From an uncultured Rhodospirillales bacterium (GTDB lineage Bacteria; Pseudomonadota; Alphaproteobacteria; RF32; CAG-239), in the NCBI GenBank assembly GCA_902763185.1, contig CACWQT010000001.1, positions 74,722 to 138,721 of the forward strand: a DNA stretch of 64,000 nt, in the 5' to 3' direction. Of this stretch, positions 35,000-47,205 are shown piece by piece (within the stretch, counting starts at the first letter, position 1; the number at the start of each line of letters is the position of its first letter). The notes under the pieces are model-generated. The model saw only the letters and a list, made by a program, of their open reading frames with translations. It searched no databases and was not told the DNA's origin. A program made the position numbers and the translations under genes.

Positions 35000-36205
35000 A
35001 TGTTTTATCCGGAATTTATCAAATCCCAAAAACTCTTTGTAAATGAAGATCTTTTGCATCTTTTTAAAATAATAGAAAAACATGGTGGGACTTTGCGCTT
35101 TGTAGGCGGATTTGTTCGTGATACGATTGCCGGCTATAAACATGCTGATATTGACCTTGTGACAGATTTATCACCAACAGAATTTGCCGATATTTGTGAT
35201 GATGAGGGCATAAAATGCATAAAAATCGGTTTAAAGTTTTTTTCGTTAGGTGTGATTATCAATAACAGTTTTTTCAAAGTTACAACGCTCGGACTAGATG
35301 AAGACAATATTAAGGATGTCTGGAAAGCAGATGCCGCACAGCGCGATTTAACAATTAATGCTGTTTATGCTGATGATAAAGGAAATGTATTTGACTACTT
35401 TGACGGAATAAAAGACCTTGAAAAGGGTGTAATTAAATTTATCGGGAATCCACAAAAAGCTATTGAACGCAACTATATACATATTATGCGTTTTTTCAGA
35501 TTTTGTGCGATGTTTGGGCAAAAGATTGATAAAAAATCCCTTAAAGCTTGTATTGAAAACAAAAAGTTATTGCAGCAACTTTCTCAAGAAAAAATAAAAG
35601 AAGAGCTATTTAAGATTATTATGGCGCCCTACGCTGCAAGAGCCTTAGAGCTTGTGTTTAAATACGGTGTATTAGATTTCATGATAGCTCCAGCGAAAGA
35701 TTTAGATGGCTTAAGAGTGCTAGAAGAGCTTGTCATAACTTTGGATATCGAAAGAAGTATAATCCGAAGAATCTATGTCTTATTTAAGCCAAGCATTGCA
35801 CGCGCCAACCGCCTGTCCAGTATTTTTAGGCTTACAAAAGAACAAAAAGAGCATCTGTTAACCTTATGCAACGCCAAACTAGATAAAGAAAATTTTAGTG
35901 ATTTAAAAGCAATCAATCAGTCATTATATAAATACGACAGGAATATTTGTATCGATAAATTTTTAACGGCCAATTTGGACAATCAGAATATTGAGCAGCT
36001 ATCAAAAACTTTAAATACACTGCTTTTAACACCTAGACCTATCTTTCCATTAACTGCTCAAGATTTCATAAATCTCGGCGGTGAAAAAAAATTTATCAGT
36101 GTTTATATGGAGGCTCTAAAAAACGAATGGCTAGAAAGCGGATGTCTTTTATCTAAAGATGAATTGATAGAGAAATTTAAACTAATCTTTAAATACGGTG
36201 TTTAA
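35000..36205 (+). CDS. CCA tRNA nucleotidyltransferase / poly(A) polymerase family protein
   Basis: Head-domain motif GGFVRDTIAGYKHADIDLVTD, RDLTINA; C-terminus FKYGV* is encoded by a copy of the 19-bp repeat. Confidence 0.8.
   Translation: MFYPEFIKSQKLFVNEDLLHLFKIIEKHGGTLRFVGGFVRDTIAGYKHADIDLVTDLSPTEFADICDDEGIKCIKIGLKFFSLGVIINNSFFKVTTLGLDEDNIKDVWKADAAQRDLTINAVYADDKGNVFDYFDGIKDLEKGVIKFIGNPQKAIERNYIHIMRFFRFCAMFGQKIDKKSLKACIENKKLLQQLSQEKIKEELFKIIMAPYAARALELVFKYGVLDFMIAPAKDLDGLRVLEELVITLDIERSIIRRIYVLFKPSIARANRLSSIFRLTKEQKEHLLTLCNAKLDKENFSDLKAINQSLYKYDRNICIDKFLTANLDNQNIEQLSKTLNTLLLTPRPIFPLTAQDFINLGGEKKFISVYMEALKNEWLESGCLLSKDELIEKFKLIFKYGV
35657..35676. repeat. partial/degenerate copy of 19-bp repeat (TTTAAATACGGTGTATTAGA) inside CCA/PAP gene
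   Basis: First 14 nt match, 3' arm degraded; encodes VFKYGV. Confidence 0.45.
36010..36030. repeat. degenerate copy of 19-bp repeat (TTTAAATACACTGcTTTtAAc) inside CCA/PAP gene
   Basis: 13-nt left arm plus core exact; encodes LNTLLL. Confidence 0.4.
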
Positions 36206-36206
36206 A
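36188..36206. repeat. 19-bp near-palindromic repeat TTTAAATACGGTGTTTAAA (supplies stop codon of the CCA/PAP gene)
   Basis: Motif family TTTAAATACRSYGTTTAAA; internal TAA is the gene's stop. Confidence 0.7.
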
Positions 36207-36388
36207 TAAAAAGGATTAAAATCACAAAAATCAAGTTAAATCAGCACATTATTAAATACGCCAAAAATTTATCGTACAGTGCCTAAATTTTGTTTTCATA
36301 ACAACTTACCCACAAAACAAAAACTTTTGTTCTGTGGGTAAAAAAATAGGTTTTTGTGCTATTTTAGAATAAAATGGAATAATAAGAC

Positions 36389-37261
36389 TTATTTTCTATC
36401 CAATAATTCCAAAATAGAATTTAGCTCCGCAGGATTTTTGTATTCAATACTGATTTTTCCCTTTTCAGACGTTTGGGCATTAATTTTTATTTTCATTCCG
36501 ATTTTTTTGGTTAAATCTTTTTCTAATTCTTTTAAATTCGGATCTTTTTTCTTTTTTGGAGCAATGGTTTTATTTTGATTATTTTTAATGTTATTTACTA
36601 AGTCTTCTGTTTGTCGGACTGTTAAACCTTTATCCACGATTTTTTGTGCAATAATTTCAGCATTATCCAAACCAACCAGAGTTCTTGCATGACCTGCGGT
36701 TAATTTGTTTTCTTTTATCATATTTTTAACGCTTTCCGGCAAACTTAACAAACGGATTGCATTTGTGATGTAACTGCGTGATTTTCCAACCACTTTGGAT
36801 AGAGCCTCATGTGTGTGTGCAAATTCCGTAATTAAACGATCAAAGCCCTCGGCCTCTTCTATTACTGAAAGATTTTCACGCAACAAGTTTTCAACCAAAG
36901 CAACTTCTAAAACTTCTTGGTTGGTTAATTCTTTTTCTATAACCGGAACCTCTGCAATACCGGCCAATTTTGCTGCACGCCAACGACGTTCACCGGCAAT
37001 AATTTCATATTTTTCTCCGTTTTTACGAACAATTAAAGGCTGAAGCACACCTTTTTCTTTAACAGATTGCACCAAAGCATTTAGCGCCTCTTGATTAAAT
37101 TCTTTACGCGGTTGATATGGACTTGGTAATAAATTTTCTGTTTTAACAGTTGTTATTCCGGCGTTTGAAAAGCCTTCTGCATTGATGTTTTCTAGGGAAA
37201 ATTCCAGACCATCATCACCTAATAAAGCCTCTAAACCGCGACCTAAACCATGCTTTGACAT
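36389..37261 (-). CDS. parB: chromosome partitioning protein ParB
   Basis: ParB box GERRWRAAKLAG, HTH region. Confidence 0.9.
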   Translation of the reverse strand: MSKHGLGRGLEALLGDDGLEFSLENINAEGFSNAGITTVKTENLLPSPYQPRKEFNQEALNALVQSVKEKGVLQPLIVRKNGEKYEIIAGERRWRAAKLAGIAEVPVIEKELTNQEVLEVALVENLLRENLSVIEEAEGFDRLITEFAHTHEALSKVVGKSRSYITNAIRLLSLPESVKNMIKENKLTAGHARTLVGLDNAEIIAQKIVDKGLTVRQTEDLVNNIKNNQNKTIAPKKKKDPNLKELEKDLTKKIGMKIKINAQTSEKGKISIEYKNPAELNSILELLDRK

Positions 37262-37262
37262 A

Positions 37263-38033
37263 CTATATCTCCTTTTCTCTTTTTAAAACTTCTTTAGCTA
37301 AATTTAAATAAGCTTTAGCTCCCGTGCTTTTGAAATCATAAATTAAAATCGGTTGTCCATGCGACGGCGCTTCAGAAATTCTGACGCTTCTTGGAATAAC
37401 CGTGTTATAAACTTTGGCGCCAAAATATTTACGCACATCATTTTCTACCATTTGGCTTAAATTATTGCGCTTATCATACATTGTTAAAACAATACCCTGA
37501 ATGTTCAACTTGGAATTAAAATTCTTTTTTATGGTGTTGATATTTTTGATTAAATCCGTCAACCCTTCAAGCGCTAAAAATTCACTTTGTAGCGGAACGA
37601 TAACCGAATCAGATGATACAAGAGCATTAATTGTTATCAGGTTTAATGACGGCGGACAATCAATTAAAATATAATCATATTTTGAACCGATGCTATTTAA
37701 TGCCGACTTTAATACATATTCCCGTCTGTTAAAGTCTATTAGTTCAATTTCTGCCGCTGCGAGTGCCGGCGCAGAGGGTAAAATATCAAATTTTTTAATA
37801 TCTGTTTTAATGATAGCTTCTTCGGGACGGCAATTGTTTATCATAACATCATAGGTAGAAAACAGGCATTTATTTTTATTTATCCCTAAAGAAGTTGTCG
37901 CATTGCCCTGCGGATCCATATCCAAAATTAAAACTCTTTTACCAATAGCCGCCATAGCAGTAGCAATATTTATAGCTGTTGTTGTTTTACCTACACCGCC
38001 TTTGCGGTTTGCTACGGATATGATTTTAACCAT
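37263..38033 (-). CDS. parA: chromosome partitioning ATPase ParA
   Basis: Deviant Walker A NRKGGVGKTTTAIN. Confidence 0.9.
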   Translation of the reverse strand: MVKIISVANRKGGVGKTTTAINIATAMAAIGKRVLILDMDPQGNATTSLGINKNKCLFSTYDVMINNCRPEEAIIKTDIKKFDILPSAPALAAAEIELIDFNRREYVLKSALNSIGSKYDYILIDCPPSLNLITINALVSSDSVIVPLQSEFLALEGLTDLIKNINTIKKNFNSKLNIQGIVLTMYDKRNNLSQMVENDVRKYFGAKVYNTVIPRSVRISEAPSHGQPILIYDFKSTGAKAYLNLAKEVLKREKEI

Positions 38034-38649
38034 TTATATTTCTCCTAATATTTTTTATCAATAAGACCCGACCTTTTTCAGATGTTTCACTTGAAAATGA
38101 TTGGTGCTCAAACGTCCATTTTTGCTCTGCTGTTTTTATTTCTTCTTGCCACTTTTCACCTTTTAGGAATAAAAGTTTAGTTTCTTTATTACAAAACGGT
38201 TTGGCATATTGTAATAACTTTTCTAATGAAGCCATTGCTCTTGATGTTATAATATCCGCTTTCGGTAAAGTCAACTTTTCTATACGCTCGGGCAATACAA
38301 CCATATTAAGTTTTAGCTTTTTATTGACTTCGCTTAAGAATGTTGCTTTTTTACCGATGCTTTCTATCAGTGTAATTTTCAGATTAGGATAAAGCTCTCT
38401 ACTTATTATAGCTAAAACAACGGCCGGAAAGCCCGCCCCTGATCCGAAGTCATACAATGTTTTATCTTCATTCTTTATATACTGAATCAGTTGTGCTGAA
38501 TCAAGAACATGGCGCTCCCAGATATCCTCAACCGATGATTTACTAATCAGATTAAACTTTTCGTTCCATTCCAAAACCATGTTCTGAAAAGTAACTAAAT
38601 TTTCTGTTGTTTCACGTGAAACATTATATTTCTCTAGCAAATTTTCCAT
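38026..38649 (-). CDS. rsmG: 16S rRNA m7G527 methyltransferase RsmG
   Basis: SAM-MTase fold (DFGSGAGFPAVVLAI); contains a perfect parS. Confidence 0.9.
   Translation of the reverse strand: MENLLEKYNVSRETTENLVTFQNMVLEWNEKFNLISKSSVEDIWERHVLDSAQLIQYIKNEDKTLYDFGSGAGFPAVVLAIISRELYPNLKITLIESIGKKATFLSEVNKKLKLNMVVLPERIEKLTLPKADIITSRAMASLEKLLQYAKPFCNKETKLLFLKGEKWQEEIKTAEQKWTFEHQSFSSETSEKGRVLLIKNIRRNING
38073..38088. promoter_or_regulatory. degenerate parS-like half-palindrome (TGTTTCACTTGAAAAT) at rsmG 3' end
   Basis: 13/16 match. Confidence 0.3.
38608..38623. promoter_or_regulatory. parS: parS centromere site (perfect consensus TGTTTCACGTGAAACA) inside rsmG
   Basis: Exact 16-bp palindrome; encodes NVSRET of RsmG. 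Confidence 0.85.
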
Positions 38650-38710
38650 GAAAATGATAATATTTTATTCTTTTTTATTTGGAATAAAATAAACGAAGTT
38701 ATGAACAAAA

Positions 38711-40561
38711 CTATTTTGCGTTTTTCATATATCCCAGGATAGCGATAATTGCCGCTGGTGTAATACCTGATATCCGAGAAGCTTCACCAATAGTTGACGG
38801 ACGCGCTTTATCAAGCTTAGAAACAACTTCACGCGAAAGTCCACCAATTTTACTGTAATCAATATCTGGAAAAATTTTCACCATTTCATCTTTTTTGAAA
38901 ACCTCAATATCGATTGATTGTCGTTTCATATATCCCGAGTATTTCGATTCTATTGCAATTTGTTCATAAACAGCATCATCTATCGTTGCAAATTCCGGAA
39001 TAATTTTTTCTATTGTTTCACGTGAAACATCACTATTCCCCATCAACTCAAAGAGAGTGTGTTTCGGACTATCTTTCTTAAGGGGTAGATTATACTCTTC
39101 TATTTCCATCTTACTGATTTTAATATCTTTTGTTAGTTGGCTGTATTTTTCTATTGCTTCCTTTTTAGCTTTAAATACACCGTATCTTTTTTCAGACACA
39201 CATCCGATTTTATATCCCCTTTCCGTTAATCGCATATCAGCATTATCAGCGCGCAATGATAGACGATATTCAGCCCGAGACGTGAAAACACGGTATGGTT
39301 CATCTACCCCTTTGGTAATTAAATCATCTACCATTACACCAATATAGCTTTCACTTCTGTCGGTATAAAATTCATCTTTATCTTGAGAATACAGTCCTGC
39401 ATTAATACCGGCAAGACAACCTTGAGCTGCGGCCTCCTCATATCCGGTTGTGCCGTTTATTTGTCCTGCAAGGTATAAACCTTTAACTTTTTTGGTTGCC
39501 AAACAATGATTCAGTTCTCGCGGATCCACAAAATCATATTCAATAGCATATGCATAGCGTAAAATCTCAACATCTTCCAAACCTTTTATTGTATGAATAA
39601 ATTCATCTTGAACATCTGCCGGCAAAGAAGTAGATATACCATTCGGATAAACAACATCAGTGTCATAACCTTCCGGCTCCAAAAAAATTTGATGACTAGT
39701 TTTATCGGCAAATTTAACAAGCTTATCTTCAATACTCGGGCAGTAACGCGGACCAACGCCGGTAATCAAACCTGAAAACAGAGCGCATTTAGAAAAATTA
39801 TCTCTAATGATTTTATGGGTTGTTTCGTTGGTGTGTGTAATGTAGCACTTAATTTGAGGCTGTGGCAATTCTTTTGTTAAAAATGAAAATGGTATAGGTT
39901 TTTTATCCCCCTCTTGCTCATCTAATATATCCCATTTAATTGTCTTACCATTCAAGCGGGCAGGGGTTCCTGTTTTCAAGCGACCAACAGATAGGCCGGC
40001 ATCCTTTAAATACGATGTTATACCCTTGCAACTTACGTCATTAACACGTCCACCTATTGTTGTTTTATGTCCAGTAAACATTATGCCGTTTAAAAACGTG
40101 CCTGTCGTTAAAACAACAGCCTTTGCAAAATATTTTTCTCCCTCAGCAGAAACAACACCTTTGATTTCTTTATCGTCGATAATCAACCCTTCAACAGCTT
40201 TTTCTATTATAATTAAATTATCTTGTTCCTGAAGTGCTTCCAGCATGTATTTTTTATACAAATCCCGATCAGCTTGAGCTCGCGGGCCTTGGACAGCCGG
40301 TCCTTTAGAGGCATTTAACATTCTAAATTGTATACCAGCTTTATCAATAACCCTTGCCATAAGACCATCAAGCGCATCAATTTCACGCACCAAATGACCT
40401 TTTCCCAAGCCACCAATAGCCGGATTACAGGACATTTCACCAATTGTATTTATTTTGTGAGTGATTAAAGCTGTTTTTGCACCAGTTCTGGCAGCTGCGG
40501 CTGCCGCTTCGCACCCGGCATGACCACCACCAACAACTATGACATCAAATTTATTCATCAA
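38711..40561 (-). CDS. mnmG: tRNA uridine 5-carboxymethylaminomethyl modification enzyme MnmG
   Basis: FAD motif [12 protein letters not shown], 616 aa; contains a perfect parS. Confidence 0.95.
39014..39029. promoter_or_regulatory. parS: parS centromere site (perfect) inside mnmG
   Basis: Exact TGTTTCACGTGAAACA; encodes DVSRET near the MnmG C-terminus. Confidence 0.85.
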
Positions 40562-40642
40562 ATAAGCCTCTTTTGTGTTTGTTTTCGCGTTATTCTACAT
40601 GTTTTTTTGTAGATTTCAAGGATTATCTCTTACTAAATTTAT

Positions 40643-40671
40643 TGACAAATAAAACTTTTAGTTTATATAAA
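40643..40671 (+). promoter_or_regulatory. sigma70-like promoter for orphan ORF
   Basis: TTGACA - 17 bp - ATATAA about 30 bp upstream of ATG 40703, with AAAGAGG SD. Confidence 0.5.
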
Positions 40672-40702
40672 AACAAAAACACAACCGTTAAAAGAGGCAA
40701 AA

Positions 40703-42040
40703 ATGTCCGATAGGAAAATGTTTATAAATACAGAAAAAGAATTATTGCTCAAAAATTTATTTTATTCTGCCCAAGATAAAAAATTGTTCAAAATGTTTGA
40801 TAAGCAATTAGCACAGCAACGCTTCACGAACATATCGATATTGTCCTCAAATGAAAATATATTAAATTTAAGCGCTATAAGTATAACAATAAACGATTTA
40901 AGAAATATTGTTACCAAGTTCCTTAATACAAAAAAAACAGCTACTATTTTTTCCGGCCGGTCACTCTATGAATTGGTTAAGTTTTCAAACTTATCTTCCC
41001 AAAAAATTAATAATAGCCTTTCTTGTCAAAAAATTTCATCCTTATGCAATAAATTATCAGATGTTTCACATGAAACAACGCACATCAGCTTCGATTTTAT
41101 GATTTTACATATCGCTTGTAATTTAATTACCAAAATTTCCGATGCTGATCATAAGAAAGAATTAATTTTATTAAAAAAAGAAGTTTGCCACAATTTAGTA
41201 GCAAAAAAATATCTACCGGAAGAAAAAAACAAACCGAATACCTACTTATGCTGGATTGATATGTTGCTAAATCTGACCATTTCAGGTGATATATCCATTG
41301 ATAATTATATAGCTATTTGTAATAAAATTATTGCACTTGTTTATTTTAATCCTGATATTTTATGGAAGATATCTTCTGCTACCTCATATTTATTACAGAT
41401 TTCCTATTTTTGTGACGCAACGTGTTTAAGAAATTTTAGAAGAAGAATATTAAACAGTGCATCTACTACAAATTCAAATTGCGAAATCAATGAGCAAAAG
41501 ATATCAAATTTATTAATCCAAACTCTTTCTAATAGCAACATCTGCAAAGAGGATTACTATTGTTTATTTGCTAATATGCTATGTTTCTCGCAAAATAATT
41601 TAAGGGATAAACTTTATTGTCTTAAGATTTTTCATTATCTCTTTTACAGGCATACAATAAAAAGCATTTTTTCATACAGGCATATTCGTGAAAACCTTTT
41701 AAATACACTGTTTAAAATCATAGATAACAATGATAATACAGAAACAGATGAAAGTTCTTTTCTTTTTTTATGTAAACTGCTTATAGATAAAGAAAATTTC
41801 GAATCTCATTTTAATAATCTTTACAATGCGGCTCTTTTTATACTAAAAAGGATCGGTAATAACCCCGCCAATACAACGCCTCAAAAATTCTATAAATACT
41901 GTAGCATTTTAGACTATTTAGCCAAGAGAAACAAACTCAATACAAACGTTTGTTTGCCAGAAATTTTAGCCAACTCAAATCACCAAACCAAATTAATAAA
42001 GAAACATCTAAAAACACTGACATTTAAATACAGCGTTTAA
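40703..42040 (+). CDS. orphan hypothetical protein (445 aa, Leu/Asn/Cys-rich, no TM) inserted between mnmG and mnmE
   Basis: Long ORF with own promoter and SD; no recognisable domain; interrupts the otherwise conserved mnmE-mnmG adjacency. Confidence 0.6.
   Translation: MSDRKMFINTEKELLLKNLFYSAQDKKLFKMFDKQLAQQRFTNISILSSNENILNLSAISITINDLRNIVTKFLNTKKTATIFSGRSLYELVKFSNLSSQKINNSLSCQKISSLCNKLSDVSHETTHISFDFMILHIACNLITKISDADHKKELILLKKEVCHNLVAKKYLPEEKNKPNTYLCWIDMLLNLTISGDISIDNYIAICNKIIALVYFNPDILWKISSATSYLLQISYFCDATCLRNFRRRILNSASTTNSNCEINEQKISNLLIQTLSNSNICKEDYYCLFANMLCFSQNNLRDKLYCLKIFHYLFYRHTIKSIFSYRHIRENLLNTLFKIIDNNDNTETDESSFLFLCKLLIDKENFESHFNNLYNAALFILKRIGNNPANTTPQKFYKYCSILDYLAKRNKLNTNVCLPEILANSNHQTKLIKKHLKTLTFKYSV
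41053..41068. promoter_or_regulatory. parS: parS-like site (1 mismatch, TGTTTCACATGAAACA) inside orphan ORF
   Basis: 15/16 match to parS; encodes DVSHET. Confidence 0.6.
41698..41716. repeat. 19-bp repeat copy TTTAAATACACTGTTTAAA inside orphan ORF (encodes LNTLFK)
   Basis: Exact family match. Confidence 0.7.
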
Positions 42041-42041
42041 A
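42023..42041. repeat. 19-bp repeat copy TTTAAATACAGCGTTTAAA spanning orphan-ORF stop, 1 bp from the mnmE stop
   Basis: Family match with flanks catTTTAAA...TTTAAAtta identical to the 45446 copy. Confidence 0.7.
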
Positions 42042-43379
42042 TTATTTACCAATACAAAAACTGGAAAAGATATTATCCAAAATTTCATCTACCTTGACAA
42101 GACCGGTTATTGAACCAAGAGAGCGGCAAGCAAGACGAATATCTTCTGCTGATAATTCTATTTCTTTATTTAAGGAAAAGCGATTCAAATTATCTAAACA
42201 ATCTTTAAGTGCTTCTCGGTAGCGTTGACGAGTTATAAGATTTCCTGAGGAAGGGGTGAACTTTTCTTTAATAAAAGATACTAATTCATCTACTAAAATA
42301 TTAATACCGTTCTGATATTTTGCAGATATTAATATGTGGTTACTTTGTTTTATTCTTTCTTTTTGTTCTTCCGATAATTTATCGGCTTTATTGGCTACAT
42401 AAAAAACTTTTTCTACATCATTCGGCAATAATGTATTATCAAAATCCCCCACTGAGGCATCATACAAAGCTAATACAGCATCAGCTTCTTTTATTTTATT
42501 TAAGGCAATTTCTATACCCTGCTTTTCTATTTCATTATCAGCATTTCTTATCCCGGCGGTATCAGTAATAATAACAGGATATCCTTTGATATCTAAACTG
42601 ATATCTACAGCATCACGGGTGGTGCCGGCAATATCCGAAACAATCATGGTATTATTTTTAGTAAGTGCATTTATCAGGCTTGATTTACCTGCATTAGCAG
42701 CACCTGCCACGACAATTCTAAAACCATTTTTGAGTCTTTCATTTACATTATTACCCTCTAAATGTTTCTCTATTTCTTCACGCACTTTAAATACAGTGTT
42801 TAAAATACTTTCAGATAAATTATCCGGTATTTCTTCATCAGGGAAATCGATGTATGCCTCAAGATAAGATAGAATTTTTACTAAACTTTCACGCCATGAA
42901 TAGTATAGATTTTTTAAATTACCACTCATTTGTTTAATAGCATATTTTTGCTGTTCTGAGGTTTCAGCATCAATCAGGTCAGCCAAACCCTCGGCTTCTG
43001 TTAAATCCATTTTATTATTATGAAAAGCACGTTTTGAAAATTCTCCAGCCTCAGCTAAACGGACATTCTCAAAACCGGATAAAAGTTTAAATACACTGTT
43101 TAAAACAGCTTTTGACCCATGGCATTGAATTTCTAACACATCTTCTCCGGTAAAAGAATGCGGTGCATTAAAATATAAAATCAGACATTTATCTATTGTT
43201 TCACGTGTAACATTATTTTTGAGATCAATAAAATAAGCGTATCGTGGCTTGATTTTTTTTATATCCAAATAGGTAATTTGCGAGATAATATTTTTTACCT
43301 CATTACCGGATATACGTATCACAGCAACACCTGATTTTCCATAAACCGTTGATAAAGCATATATTGTTTTATTATCCAT
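42042..43379 (-). CDS. mnmE: tRNA modification GTPase MnmE
   Basis: G1 GAANAGKSSL, C-terminal FCIGK. ORF track start 43427 is a TTG with no SD; the ATG at 43377-43379 has a GAGGTG SD and gives canonical N-terminus MDNKTIYALST. Confidence 0.9.
   Translation of the reverse strand: MDNKTIYALSTVYGKSGVAVIRISGNEVKNIISQITYLDIKKIKPRYAYFIDLKNNVTRETIDKCLILYFNAPHSFTGEDVLEIQCHGSKAVLNSVFKLLSGFENVRLAEAGEFSKRAFHNNKMDLTEAEGLADLIDAETSEQQKYAIKQMSGNLKNLYYSWRESLVKILSYLEAYIDFPDEEIPDNLSESILNTVFKVREEIEKHLEGNNVNERLKNGFRIVVAGAANAGKSSLINALTKNNTMIVSDIAGTTRDAVDISLDIKGYPVIITDTAGIRNADNEIEKQGIEIALNKIKEADAVLALYDASVGDFDNTLLPNDVEKVFYVANKADKLSEEQKERIKQSNHILISAKYQNGINILVDELVSFIKEKFTPSSGNLITRQRYREALKDCLDNLNRFSLNKEIELSAEDIRLACRSLGSITGLVKVDEILDNIFSSFCIGK
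42786..42804. repeat. 19-bp repeat copy TTTAAATACAGTGTTTAAA inside mnmE (encodes LNTVFK on the minus strand)
   Basis: Exact consensus. Confidence 0.75.
43086..43104. repeat. 19-bp repeat copy TTTAAATACACTGTTTAAA inside mnmE (encodes LNSVFK)
   Basis: Exact family match; central CAGTG/CACTG inverted relative to other copies. Confidence 0.75.
43197..43212. promoter_or_regulatory. parS: parS-like site (1 mismatch, TGTTTCACGTGTAACA) inside mnmE
   Basis: 15/16 match; encodes NVTRET. Confidence 0.6.
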
Positions 43380-43409
43380 TTTACACCTCGTTTTTATCTC
43401 TCTAGCAAA

Positions 43410-43420
43410 TGTATTTAAAT
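43410..43420. repeat. half-site of 19-bp repeat (TGTATTTAAAT) in the mnmE promoter spacer
   Basis: Matches the TTTAAATACA arm; lies between a TTGACT -35-like hexamer and the mnmE SD. Confidence 0.3.
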
Positions 43421-43500
43421 TAGTCAAAGGTTTTATTATATAAGCTTTTTTAACTCTTGTTTGATAAAATAGATACAGATTGATTTTTAAGGATAATTAA

Positions 43501-44163
43501 ATGAAGAAAAATTTGGTTATTTGGGATTTTGACGGTGTTATAGCTGATAGTGAAAAAATTTGGATTAAAAATCGACAAGAAGCCGTTAATAAATTATTTC
43601 ATCTTAATTGGGATTTTCAGACAACAAATAAATATCTTGGCGGAATGGGGGATAAAACTAAGCGACAGGTTTTAGATACCATGGGTTACAAAACCGATGA
43701 TGCCTTTTGGAAGGATCAATTAGAAATGGATATGGCAATTATGCGGCGTGACGGTTTAGAAATAACACCATATGTTGAAGAAATTATCAAAAAGTTACCT
43801 AAGCAATGTGTCGCTACCGGTGGAATTAAAAGCAAAACAATTGTTAAATTAGAAGTTATCGGATTTTGGAATAAATATTTTAATGATGACAATTTATTTA
43901 CCATAGATATGGTTAAAAACGGTAAACCTGAACCGGATTTATTTCTTTTAGCGGCAAAGACTATGAATGAACTCCCAAAAGATTGTGTTGTGATAGAAGA
44001 TTCCGTTGCCGGTATTACTGCCGCACAAAGAGCCGGTATGGATGTTATTGCATTTTTAGGATGCGAAATGTATCATAACAACACATATCTAGAACGTGTT
44101 AAACAAACCGGAGTTAAAAATATTTGCTTTGATATGAGAGAAGTTAAAAAAATACTGCTATAA
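43501..44163 (+). CDS. HAD-superfamily hydrolase (beta-phosphoglucomutase-like)
   Basis: DxDG motif VIWDFDGVIADSE, C-terminal ED..AGI..A block. Confidence 0.75.
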   Translation: MKKNLVIWDFDGVIADSEKIWIKNRQEAVNKLFHLNWDFQTTNKYLGGMGDKTKRQVLDTMGYKTDDAFWKDQLEMDMAIMRRDGLEITPYVEEIIKKLPKQCVATGGIKSKTIVKLEVIGFWNKYFNDDNLFTIDMVKNGKPEPDLFLLAAKTMNELPKDCVVIEDSVAGITAAQRAGMDVIAFLGCEMYHNNTYLERVKQTGVKNICFDMREVKKILL

Positions 44164-44185
44164 ACTCCAATAATTTTTACTTAAT

Positions 44186-45340
44186 TTATTTTTTAGTATT
44201 TTTAAGGGCAACAAAAAACAGACTGTTACTCGTTAAAGCCAAAATATAAAAACACAGCATGGCGGTATAAGGGTTGGTCATATCTGCCAACATTCCGATT
44301 AAAACGGCGCACAGCGAATAAAACAGCGAGCCGAACAAGGAAACAATTGATAAAATGGTGGCTCTTTCTTGTGCACTGCAATCATTTTGAATTAAGGTAT
44401 CTTGCGCCGGTTCTTTCAAACCGCTACAAAACGTAGAGATGATTTTAATAACCGGACTCCATACACTTGCCGCCAACACCGAAATAATGTTATTTAAGTT
44501 ATCGCAACAAGCTCCAAACAGAATGGTAAATTTCAAGCCCCAACGCTTGGCCAATAAAAAAGAAAAATAGTTGCCGAGACTGTTGGCAAAATGTCCGATA
44601 CTTCTGAATATTCCCAAACTCCACTCCGGTACAAATTGCTTGAAAAATACGGAATTAAAGTCAAAAGCGGCTTCGTTTAATCCATAATGCAAAGTTTCGG
44701 CCAAAGATATGGTTCTTAATCTCTTATGTTTGAGTAGATATTTTAAGGATTTTAATATGTGTAAAATGTTTGTGTTGTTGTCCTTATACGTCTTTTTAGG
44801 CTCAACTATTTTTATGGTTATTATAAAGGCAATAACTGCAGGTGCAATACTTGCTATCATCACGGCACGCAGAGATATAAAAACAAACACCATTCCGAGC
44901 AAAGAACCTAATGCCAAAGAAAGTTGCGATAATGATGTATTTTTAGAGATTTCTTGATGATAATCGTCTTTGCGATTTATCTGCACAAGACTGTCATAAA
45001 GCAACGCACTATTATTTCCGCTCGCTAGGGCTGAAGATAGCCCGTTTAATACCGAAGCAAAGGCCAATACGAAATAGTTTCCTGCAATAGCATAGAAAAT
45101 AAAAGATACTAACATAAATCCTGTGCCGGCACAACAAACCCATTTTCTACCCCATTTATCCGAAAGACATCCGGTCGGAACTTCTAAAAGAGTAATAGAT
45201 ATGTTTTGAATGGCAAAAAGGCTCATTGCCTCAACCAAACTGTCGCAAACTTGTGCAAAGAACAGAACTTTTATCGGATAAAATAAAATGAAACTATCCC
45301 AAAAACTGTGCCAATGCAGATATTTTATATTCTTTTCCAT
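44186..45340 (-). CDS. MFS transporter
   Basis: 12 predicted TM, MFS signature GCLSDKWGRK. Confidence 0.75.
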   Translation of the reverse strand: MEKNIKYLHWHSFWDSFILFYPIKVLFFAQVCDSLVEAMSLFAIQNISITLLEVPTGCLSDKWGRKWVCCAGTGFMLVSFIFYAIAGNYFVLAFASVLNGLSSALASGNNSALLYDSLVQINRKDDYHQEISKNTSLSQLSLALGSLLGMVFVFISLRAVMIASIAPAVIAFIITIKIVEPKKTYKDNNTNILHILKSLKYLLKHKRLRTISLAETLHYGLNEAAFDFNSVFFKQFVPEWSLGIFRSIGHFANSLGNYFSFLLAKRWGLKFTILFGACCDNLNNIISVLAASVWSPVIKIISTFCSGLKEPAQDTLIQNDCSAQERATILSIVSLFGSLFYSLCAVLIGMLADMTNPYTAMLCFYILALTSNSLFFVALKNTKK

Positions 45341-45418
45341 ATTAAAGCTCTTTGATTTACCTTCAATTCATAATTATATTTTAACAAAATTTTATACAAA
45401 GCAAACAAAAAATCCGCA

Positions 45419-45433
45419 AAGGTTATTAACCTT
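45419..45433. promoter_or_regulatory. 15-bp perfect palindrome AAGGTTA-T-TAACCTT upstream of the MFS transporter gene
   Basis: 7-bp arms around a single centre base; about 80 bp upstream of the MFS start (minus strand). Confidence 0.35.
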
Positions 45434-45445
45434 AACGGATACACA

Positions 45446-45464
45446 TTTAAATACAGTGTTTAAA
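45446..45464. repeat. 19-bp repeat copy TTTAAATACAGTGTTTAAA immediately 3' of the rho stop codon
   Basis: Exact consensus, ends 1 bp before the rho stop (45465-45467). Confidence 0.75.
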
Positions 45465-46718: not shown

Positions 46719-47205
46719 GGGAATACCTTGAAATAGGTTAGTGAAATTTAAAATTTTTTTGTTATTCTTTTTATAGCTAAAAGTTTTTAAGAGTCAATTA
46801 TTTTATTGATTAGAATAAAGACGGTTTTTTTTGAAAAAATGTTTTGCACAGGTCTTTTTCATTAAATTATTAATTAATTTTTTTGTTTTTATTTGTTAAA
46901 GGCTGTTAATATTGTGAATAAAATTTTATCCATAGATTTTTACACAAAATTTAGTATGTTGTTAGAAAACTTGTGTGCGAATCTAAAAAATTGTTTTTAA
47001 AACAAAAATTTGATTAAAAATAAATAATGTTTATAAGTAGCAGTTATAAACAAAATTAACAGTTGTGAACATCATCAAAGAAAAATGTTAATAAGTTTTG
47101 TTTCTTTTTTGGGAAATGGTGATAAATTTGATAATAATTTTATAAGAGATATATTTATGCACAACAGGACTTCAAGATGTGAATAAAAATTTTTTAGAGG
47201 ATAAA

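Follow-up and report, generated by a model that had tools for sequence, protein, structure and literature searches.

A lineage-restricted gene between mnmG and mnmE, carrying a parS-like site and a polar 19-bp motif beside the parAB genes of an uncultured alphaproteobacterium

Why should a gene on the opposite strand stand between mnmG and mnmE, two genes of tRNA U34 modification that are usually adjacent? We considered this question in a 64,000-nucleotide stretch of the genome of an uncultured Rhodospirillales bacterium (GenBank assembly GCA_902763185.1, contig CACWQT010000001.1, positions 74,722 to 138,721; hereafter the window, in which all positions are numbered from its first letter). The gene, which we call X, is an open reading frame (ORF) of 445 amino acids (aa) at 40703..42040 on the plus strand, flanked on the minus strand by mnmG (38711..40561; TIGR00136, 856 bits) and mnmE (from 42042; NF003661, 536 bits). 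An initial annotation, made from the letters alone, had remarked that X breaks the usual mnmE-mnmG adjacency, and the order mnmG(-)/X(+)/mnmE(-) agrees with this. Sequence comparison shows that X is a genuine, clade-restricted protein gene, predicted to be expressed; fairly probable, in our view, is the wider reading that it became fixed in the chromosome partition cluster and serves both as a coding gene and as a carrier of cis elements, namely a site resembling the centromere sequence parS and two copies of a 19-bp motif, TTTAAATACNNNGTTTAAA, here called M19.

The X family and its fixed position

X is not the orphan that it was first taken for. A word-indexed search returned 26 homologues with 29-98% identity, nearly all of 440-448 aa, and an exhaustive profile search of 1.84 billion representative proteins returned 48 representatives (clusters at 50% identity), all of them members of the X family or fragments of members; distant relatives with another architecture were not found among these 1.84 billion. 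The family keeps to 440-448 aa, the exceptions being fragments, a few outliers and one assembly chimera. When one genome per GTDB species was scanned, 24 loci with X came to light. Synteny was judged in every locus of sufficient length, about 32 related loci, and the order CCA-adding/polyA-polymerase-family gene (hereafter CCA; +), parB, parA, rsmG, mnmG (-), X (+), mnmE (-), rho (-) is identical in the 24 GTDB genomes and in 8 metagenome loci, so that X occupies the same slot in all of them. Moreover, the exact X protein of the window occurs on at least six metagenome contigs from several samples, and tblastn gave no matches to X in plasmids and phages. The proposed restriction to one lineage holds: the genomes carrying X are metagenome-assembled and belong to uncultured Alphaproteobacteria of ruminant, human and other animal guts, and homologues are confined to such gut or rumen Alphaproteobacteria. 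The initial annotation had reckoned with homologues of known function at this position; homologues are indeed present in the slot, but none of them has a known function.

The chimera is an apparent fusion of X with a histidine kinase (P0012, on a metagenome contig of 1433 nt), which was rejected as an assembly artefact in which X residues 1-124 are joined to the kinase at the parS codons. At this junction the parS codons overlap the histidine-kinase H-box (VSHE followed by LKTP), and the parS 16-mer shares a k-mer with DNA coding for SHELKTP.

The slot between mnmG and mnmE is apparently variable and holds different lineage-specific genes, because a sister clade without X (loci L037, L039, L044, L048, L049, L051, L053 and L108; e.g. 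L051 3607-4365) carries there, in a gap of about 760 bp, an unrelated ORF of 126 aa on the same strand as mnmG and mnmE. The GC content of this sister clade is about 0.42, and its mnmE and mnmG show 62% and 73-80% identity.

X evolves 2-20 times faster than its neighbours. The mean Kimura distance is 1.17 for X, against 0.56 for rsmG, 0.42 for CCA, 0.37 for mnmE, 0.27 for parB, 0.25 for mnmG, 0.08 for parA and 0.05 for rho. In locus L028 X is 56% identical while mnmG, mnmE and rsmG are at 93.5%, 92% and 81%; in L033 the corresponding values are 36% for X and 88%, 82% and 68% for the others. Between close pairs the ratio of nonsynonymous to synonymous substitution rates (dN/dS) is 0.14-0.19 for X, 0.03-0.04 for mnmG, 0.05-0.10 for mnmE and 0.09-0.16 for rsmG; by this measure X is under purifying selection comparable with that on rsmG. 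Additionally, the alignment has 19 invariant and 39 nearly invariant columns, distributed along the full length of X. Between the window and L030 or L028 the apparent dS is 2.2-2.4 for X and 0.7-1.3 for the flanking genes, a two- to threefold excess which may be due to saturation or to a bias of the Nei-Gojobori method at high dN, and which could hint at recombination or at old alleles at the locus. GC content is flat over the three codon positions of X (GC1/GC2/GC3 0.276/0.285/0.271), with GC1 at 0.37-0.52 in the neighbours, and the GC3 of X is native, most neighbouring genes lying between 0.21 and 0.30. The low GC1 therefore points to an amino-acid make-up that has drifted towards AT-rich codons, rather than to foreign DNA.

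As first described, the protein has no recognisable domain, no transmembrane segment and no signal peptide, and is rich in Leu, Asn and Cys. X gave no Pfam, NCBIfam, PADLOC or PDB-sequence-profile match, and Pfam gave none above threshold for 22 members of the family. Hydropathy analysis found neither a transmembrane segment nor a signal peptide nor an N-terminal hydrophobic region (highest 19-residue Kyte-Doolittle mean 1.37, with a hydrophilic N-terminus). Leu makes up 13.7% of the residues, Asn 11.0% and Cys 3.6% (16 Cys); the isoelectric point (pI) is 9.2, and about 9 throughout the family. AlphaFold2 models (pLDDT 80.7 and 82.3) are all-alpha with 22-23 helices. Foldseek with these predictions gave only weak matches to generic ARM/HEAT/TPR-type solenoids (TM-score 0.2-0.33, E about 1e-3 or worse). 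According to the models, X is a soluble, basic, all-alpha protein with a generic likeness to ARM/HEAT proteins that fits no family.

The start signals of X were partly as first described. The TTGACA hexamer (40643-40648) and the 17-nt spacing stand, but the best -10 hexamer is TATAAA (40666-40671), one base to the right of the ATATAA originally given; together they form a promoter-like site at 40643..40671 on the plus strand that matches the sigma-70 consensus at 11 of 12 positions, with a spacer within the usual 16-18 nt. A consensus scanner omits the site because it demands T at position 6 of the -10 hexamer. Promoter-like matches in this region are not above chance for AT-rich DNA (8 against 11.5 expected), so that the consensus match alone says little for the claimed promoter of its own. 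The real support for this putative promoter is phylogenetic conservation: when the mnmG-X spacers of nine relatives are aligned, the block ATTGAC.AAATAAAAC..TT.GTTTAT is invariant, down to 34% identity of the X protein, and it is conserved far better than the X coding sequence. The predicted Shine-Dalgarno sequence is present as AAGAGG at 40692..40697 (+), 5 nt before the ATG, and its AGAGG is retained in the closer relatives. Back to back with the X promoter, at 40592..40619 on the minus strand, lies a promoter-like site for the mnmG-rsmG-parA-parB block (TTGAAA, 16-nt spacer, TAGAAT; 10 of 12 in the consensus scan), whose TTTCAAG and ATTCTA show little or no variation among the same nine relatives.

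X runs opposite to the local gene orientation. In the window the order is CCA (+), parB, parA, rsmG and mnmG (-), X (+), mnmE (-), a gene of the haloacid dehalogenase (HAD) type (+), a gene resembling those of the major facilitator superfamily (MFS; -) and rho (-). X and mnmE are convergent, with stop codons 1 nt apart. The longest mnmE ORF (42042-43427) begins at TTG and has 461 aa; in all relatives mnmE is called from an internal ATG, which gives 445 aa (MDNKTIYALST..., at 43379 in the window).

Centromere sites and M19 within coding sequence

The window contains four matches to the 16-bp parS palindrome TGTTNCACGTGAAACA, against 0.08 expected, and all of them fall within 38608-43212. The parS-like site reported earlier in X (DVSHET) is indeed there: TGTTTCACATGAAACA at 41062..41077 differs from the palindrome by one mismatch in the central CG, which reads CA, and encodes (D)VSHET. 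The other three are perfect and lie in rsmG (38608..38623; NVSRET), in mnmG (39014..39029; DVSRET) and in mnmE (TGTTACACGTGAAACA, 43197..43212; NVTRET). They cluster near the likely origin (see below) and near parB and parA (36389-38033), whose cognate ParB is thus encoded nearby: parB itself (36389-37261) lies about 4 kb from the X site, and its product is an orthologue with the domains ParB_N, HTH_ParB and ParB_C. All four sites share one reading frame, V[ST][RH]ET, in the otherwise unrelated RsmG, MnmG, X and MnmE, although the palindrome could also be read through in another frame (FHVK).

Selection on the X site was assessed, together with codon usage, in 29 aligned non-redundant loci. 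The orthologous site is perfect in 5 of the 29 loci and one mismatch away in 19, with the same codons in these 24. Among all windows of six codons in X, DVSHET has the highest third-position conservation (0.91, against a gene mean of 0.59), and because these third positions are the most conserved stretch of the gene, the site is selected as DNA. The same test picks out the parS windows NVSRET in rsmG and DVSRET in mnmG. The codons GTT TCA C[GA]T GAA ACA are kept while the protein falls to about 30% identity; the encoded residue changes between R, H and C through single transitions in the central CG (VS[RHC]ET), and the codon before the site ends in T whenever the amino acid allows it.

Among the aligned loci with X, the mnmE site occurs only in the clade of the window and in L012; the sister clade without X also carries a perfect one. 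The X site is at 0-1 mismatch in all 20 genomes that lack the mnmE site, and is eroded to 4-8 mismatches in L027, L032 and L012. For this apparent turnover the Mann-Whitney p-value is 4.5e-4, although it reflects only about two independent lineages. In the genome of the window the X site appears, from these alignments, to be the weakest of the four and in the course of being replaced by the perfect mnmE site; here it is probably a weak, fading member of the array.

The second element, M19, is represented by six exact copies in the window, all on the plus strand and all within 36188-45464 (0.66 expected at up to two mismatches), so that in 64 kb it is confined to a block of about 9 kb around the parS cluster. 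Two copies lie in X, one of them giving the stop codon, exactly as the initial annotation had it. The internal copy (TTTAAATACACTGTTTAAA, 41698..41716, +) is read LNTLFK and is found only in the closest relatives (L027 and L029, and with 1 mismatch in L031). The terminal copy (TTTAAATACAGCGTTTAAA, 42023..42041, +) holds the TAA of X, is read FKYSV-stop and lies at the convergent junction with mnmE. Two further copies lie in mnmE, antisense to the gene, at 42786..42804 (+; LNTVFK) and 43086..43104 (+; LNSVFK). Another forms the stop of CCA (36188..36206, +; FKYGV-stop), at the junction where that gene converges with parB, and the last abuts the stop codon of rho (45446..45464, +), in antisense orientation to that gene. 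At either end of the parS cluster, about 2.2-2.4 kb separate the last parS site from the outermost M19 copy.

M19 is strictly polar. Counting copies with at most 1 mismatch in 30 non-redundant loci (L001-L033), all 64 of 64 have the same orientation, in at least seven classes of site. The mnmE site at 42786 is the most conserved of the lineage, with such a copy in 28 of the 30 loci, and is matched to the nucleotide in nearly all relatives; third-position identity is 1.00 there and 0.87 at 43086, against a gene mean of 0.64, which makes these the most conserved windows of mnmE. A sequence in mnmG resembling a half-site, TTTAAATACACCGT (39170-39183; RYGVFK), is conserved too (0.96).

On either strand, two of the three frames of the motif contain stop codons. 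This is why M19 is read as LN[TS][LV]FK within ORFs and otherwise ends them, and it accounts for FKYSV-stop in X, FKYGV-stop in CCA and the copy that abuts the stop of rho. An element resembling M19 stands at the X/mnmE junction of most relatives, X stopping at its first or second TAA; the stops of X and mnmE usually lie within about 30 nt of each other (1 nt in the clade of the window), and in a few loci the ORFs overlap. VSHET, LNTLFK and FKYSV-stop are best described, on this codon evidence, as imprints of DNA signals on the X protein. The suggestion that X was shaped around cis elements of the centromere region is thus well supported, both by the third positions of VS[RHC]ET and by LNTLFK and FKYSV-stop being translations of M19.

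When metagenome contigs were scanned, the exact 19-mer turned up in 86 stretches, about 35 of which are the mnmE site of the X clade. In the sister clade an exact copy in the same orientation follows the mnmE stop by about 95 nt, and another lies about 4.7 kb beyond rho. Other contigs also carry M19 directly after stop codons. L057 (1-3850) has a tandem array of three MFS-like paralogues with about 28% identity to 44186-45340 of the window; an exact M19 in sense orientation stands 0 nt after the stop of each, and a fourth copy is internal (LNTVFK). Such arrangements suggest that M19 is a gene-boundary element in other AT-rich genomes as well.

Several identities for M19 were considered and rejected. 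As an RNA hairpin or intrinsic terminator it is too weak (minimum free energy about -2.5 to -3.6 kcal/mol in four of five stretches, z-scores above -2); its own palindrome is never the predicted fold, no T-run follows it, and Rfam gave no family match anywhere in the window. It is not a CtrA box, given that its spacing is TTAA-N9-TTAA and not N7, and TTAA-N7-TTAA is not enriched in the window. The idea that M19 needs X as an obligatory partner is weakened by the sister clade, which has M19 without X. The M19 string had no match in the searchable literature. In mnmE, M19 places a classical -1 slippery heptamer, U_UUA_AAC, in the correct frame, which probably follows from the motif having only one open frame.

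X lies about 5 kb from the likely origin of replication, as judged from the minimum of the GC skew and the DnaA boxes in the rho-coaE spacer. The cumulative GC skew peaks at about 34 kb and has its minimum at about 46 kb; the spacer there (46719-47178; 460 bp, AT-rich) contains four DnaA boxes with one mismatch each at 46913-47186 and is our candidate origin. In the spacer between the convergent CCA and parB (36306-36341) we also noted an inverted pair of TTACCCACA, similar to a DnaA box with 1 mismatch.

What X may do, and the alternatives

The mechanism of ParB loading and sliding (PMC7053999, PMC8367383) offers a frame in which the DNA part of the locus can be understood. The coding sequence of X hosts one of three or four chromosomal parS sites, kept there by selection at the DNA level. 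ParB dimers would load at the sites in X, rsmG, mnmG and mnmE, if this system behaves like established ParABS systems. Once loaded, they would close as CTP-dependent clamps and slide over a block of about 5 kb that includes X and the two back-to-back promoters, and the resulting partition complex would be the substrate on which ParA acts. At its 3' end X runs into the polar M19, which sets its stop codon.

As to the protein, we tentatively suggest a cytoplasmic, solenoid-like scaffold that makes protein-protein contacts in processes of the origin and centromere region, as an accessory of the ParB/ParA partition complex, and we regard this role as possible rather than likely. Confidence in it is low because the position of the gene and its independent, conserved promoter are the whole basis of the proposal, and because the co-evolution signal is ambiguous.

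Several observations weigh against linking X with partition. Position alone ties the protein to this process, and gene order near an origin is conserved for many reasons. The mirror-tree result is equivocal, the partial correlation of X distances being 0.44 with ParB, 0.73 with the CCA-enzyme gene and about 0 with ParA. The structural matches are weak (E about 1e-3, TM-score at most 0.33), and internal repeats are not detectable, hhalign giving probabilities of 1% or less for comparisons of one X segment with another. With regard to the DNA, the 9 genomes that have a perfect mnmE site (the clade of the window and L012) show 1, 1, 1, 1, 2, 2, 4, 7 and 8 mismatches at the X site, and ParB binding at the X site of the window is uncertain because of the mismatch in the central CG and the erosion within the clade. 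Finally, M19 is independent of X, older and more widespread, because the sister clade has it without X.

A bolder extension of the scaffold idea is that X is a new bacterial alpha-solenoid that recognises M19 or ParB and sets polar boundaries around and inside the parS cluster. X and M19 together would then form an origin/centromere-domain system not described before and block antisense read-through from the few head-on genes and/or confine the sliding ParB clamps, and, if this were true, the gene would be physically built into the array of cis elements on which its product acts. We consider this unlikely; the existence of a sister clade without X weakens it.

The narrower form of the idea, in which X is a sequence-specific M19 binder, a DNA-binding alpha-solenoid of the mTERF or TALE kind that would sit on M19 inside mnmE and where plus-strand genes end, and act there as a polar roadblock to antisense read-through and/or ParB sliding, is in our opinion quite unlikely. 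X and M19 are both lineage-specific and co-localised, with the X gene ending in M19; the polarity of the motif is strict in 64 of 64 copies, its outermost copies in the window bracket the parS cluster, and 3 of the 6 window copies stand at gene ends that have no hairpin terminator. X is also basic (pI about 9) and solenoid-like, and protein roadblocks do stop ParB sliding (PMC7053999, PMC8299390). However, exact M19 copies are present in the sister clade, where the unrelated 126-aa ORF fills the slot instead of X, and on unrelated-looking contigs such as L057. Neither Pfam nor the top 50 Foldseek matches contain an mTERF, TALE or helix-turn-helix signal, and in AT-rich genomes many proteins have a pI of about 9.

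An accessory or regulatory subunit of MnmE/MnmG in tRNA U34 modification seems rather improbable too. What speaks for it is solely the invariant position of X between the two genes, but X is not co-transcribed with them, being on the opposite strand with a conserved promoter of its own. Distances of X do not co-vary with those of mnmE or mnmG (partial r -0.06 and -0.31). The MnmEG complex is conserved universally and works on its own, and no third subunit is known.

Very unlikely, in our estimation, is the secreted effector of the initial annotation, here taken as a host-interaction protein with ARM-like, 'eukaryote-like' repeats that is exported by a type IV or type I secretion system or by another route. 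The lineage is host-associated, the C-terminus of X is basic, its best structural neighbours are ARM solenoids of the beta-catenin/importin type, and it evolves fast (1.17, against 0.05-0.56 in the neighbours). Effectors typically occupy variable or island locations. X, in contrast, occurs as one copy, strictly syntenic within a housekeeping cluster, in all the genomes examined, among relatives down to about 29% identity; hydropathy gives no export signal in the form of a signal peptide or transmembrane segment, GC3 is native, and plasmid or phage relatives are lacking. With a dN/dS of about 0.15 there is also no overall diversifying selection. Fast evolution and an ARM-like fold are compatible with an effector but not specific to one, and this part of the initial proposal finds no specific support here.

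Finally, that X has no protein function at all, being an annotation artefact or a spacer kept open by parS, M19 and the promoters, is extremely unlikely: the flat GC1/GC2/GC3 profile, which is unlike that of the neighbours, the very fast evolution and the missing domain would fit, but a 1.3-kb ORF cannot stay open by chance in DNA of 28% GC, its length is held at 440-448 aa across 29-98% identity, and dN/dS of 0.14-0.19, the 19 invariant and 39 nearly invariant columns, a confidently predicted AlphaFold2 fold and a conserved Shine-Dalgarno sequence all speak against it.

Comparison with known systems

What makes this locus worth attention is how clearly it shows, in nature, signals in the DNA and the sequence of proteins limiting one another: four or five unrelated proteins bear the imprint of a centromere site and of a second, polar motif, each time in the one frame that appears usable. 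X defines a new uncharacterised protein family, and its invariant slot makes it a testable candidate for an accessory of chromosome segregation. The strictly polar, nucleotide-perfect M19 around the parS cluster is probably the more interesting lead of the two.

Food for comparison is offered by several protein systems. The predicted all-alpha structure of X, with its stacked helical hairpins, resembles ARM/HEAT/TPR solenoids such as beta-catenin, importin-alpha, designed armadillo repeats and Pds5B/STAG1. Unlike these, X has no Pfam repeat match and no internal sequence repeats, and the TM-scores are 0.2-0.33; on the models, the resemblance is one of fold class and not of family membership. 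Lineage-specific partners of the partition complex are known as PopZ and MipZ in Caulobacter, HubP in Vibrio and DivIVA, which acts with ParB, in Actinobacteria. Such partners are lineage-restricted, often evolve fast and act on ParB-parS complexes near the origin. X shares neither homology nor domains with PopZ, MipZ, HubP or DivIVA, and its likeness to them would be one of analogy only. The mTERF-type roadblocks are alpha-solenoids that bind at gene ends, to a site of about 20 bp, and whose action depends on orientation, and the pairing of M19 with X could, by analogy, be read as a polar roadblock of this type. Unlike mTERF proteins, X has no mTERF Pfam match (PF02536), there is no mTERF among the Foldseek matches listed, and M19 exists without X.

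The closest comparison is with the ParABS centromeres themselves. Chromosomal parS sites in coding sequence are familiar from Bacillus subtilis, which has parS inside spo0J, and in Caulobacter a parS cluster lies beside parAB. The sites described here are like them in matching TGTTNCACGTGAAACA, in being multiple and no more than a few kb from parAB, near the likely origin, in being intragenic and in being conserved as DNA. They differ from known parS sites in that the four of the window share one frame, V[ST][RH]ET, and in that those of X and mnmE appear to turn over between lineages; and, unlike known parS hosts, X is a clade-specific insertion between mnmG and mnmE and not a housekeeping gene. 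The current understanding of ParABS is not overturned by any of this. Intragenic parS in an origin-proximal partition cluster is already known; its combination with the X family is new.

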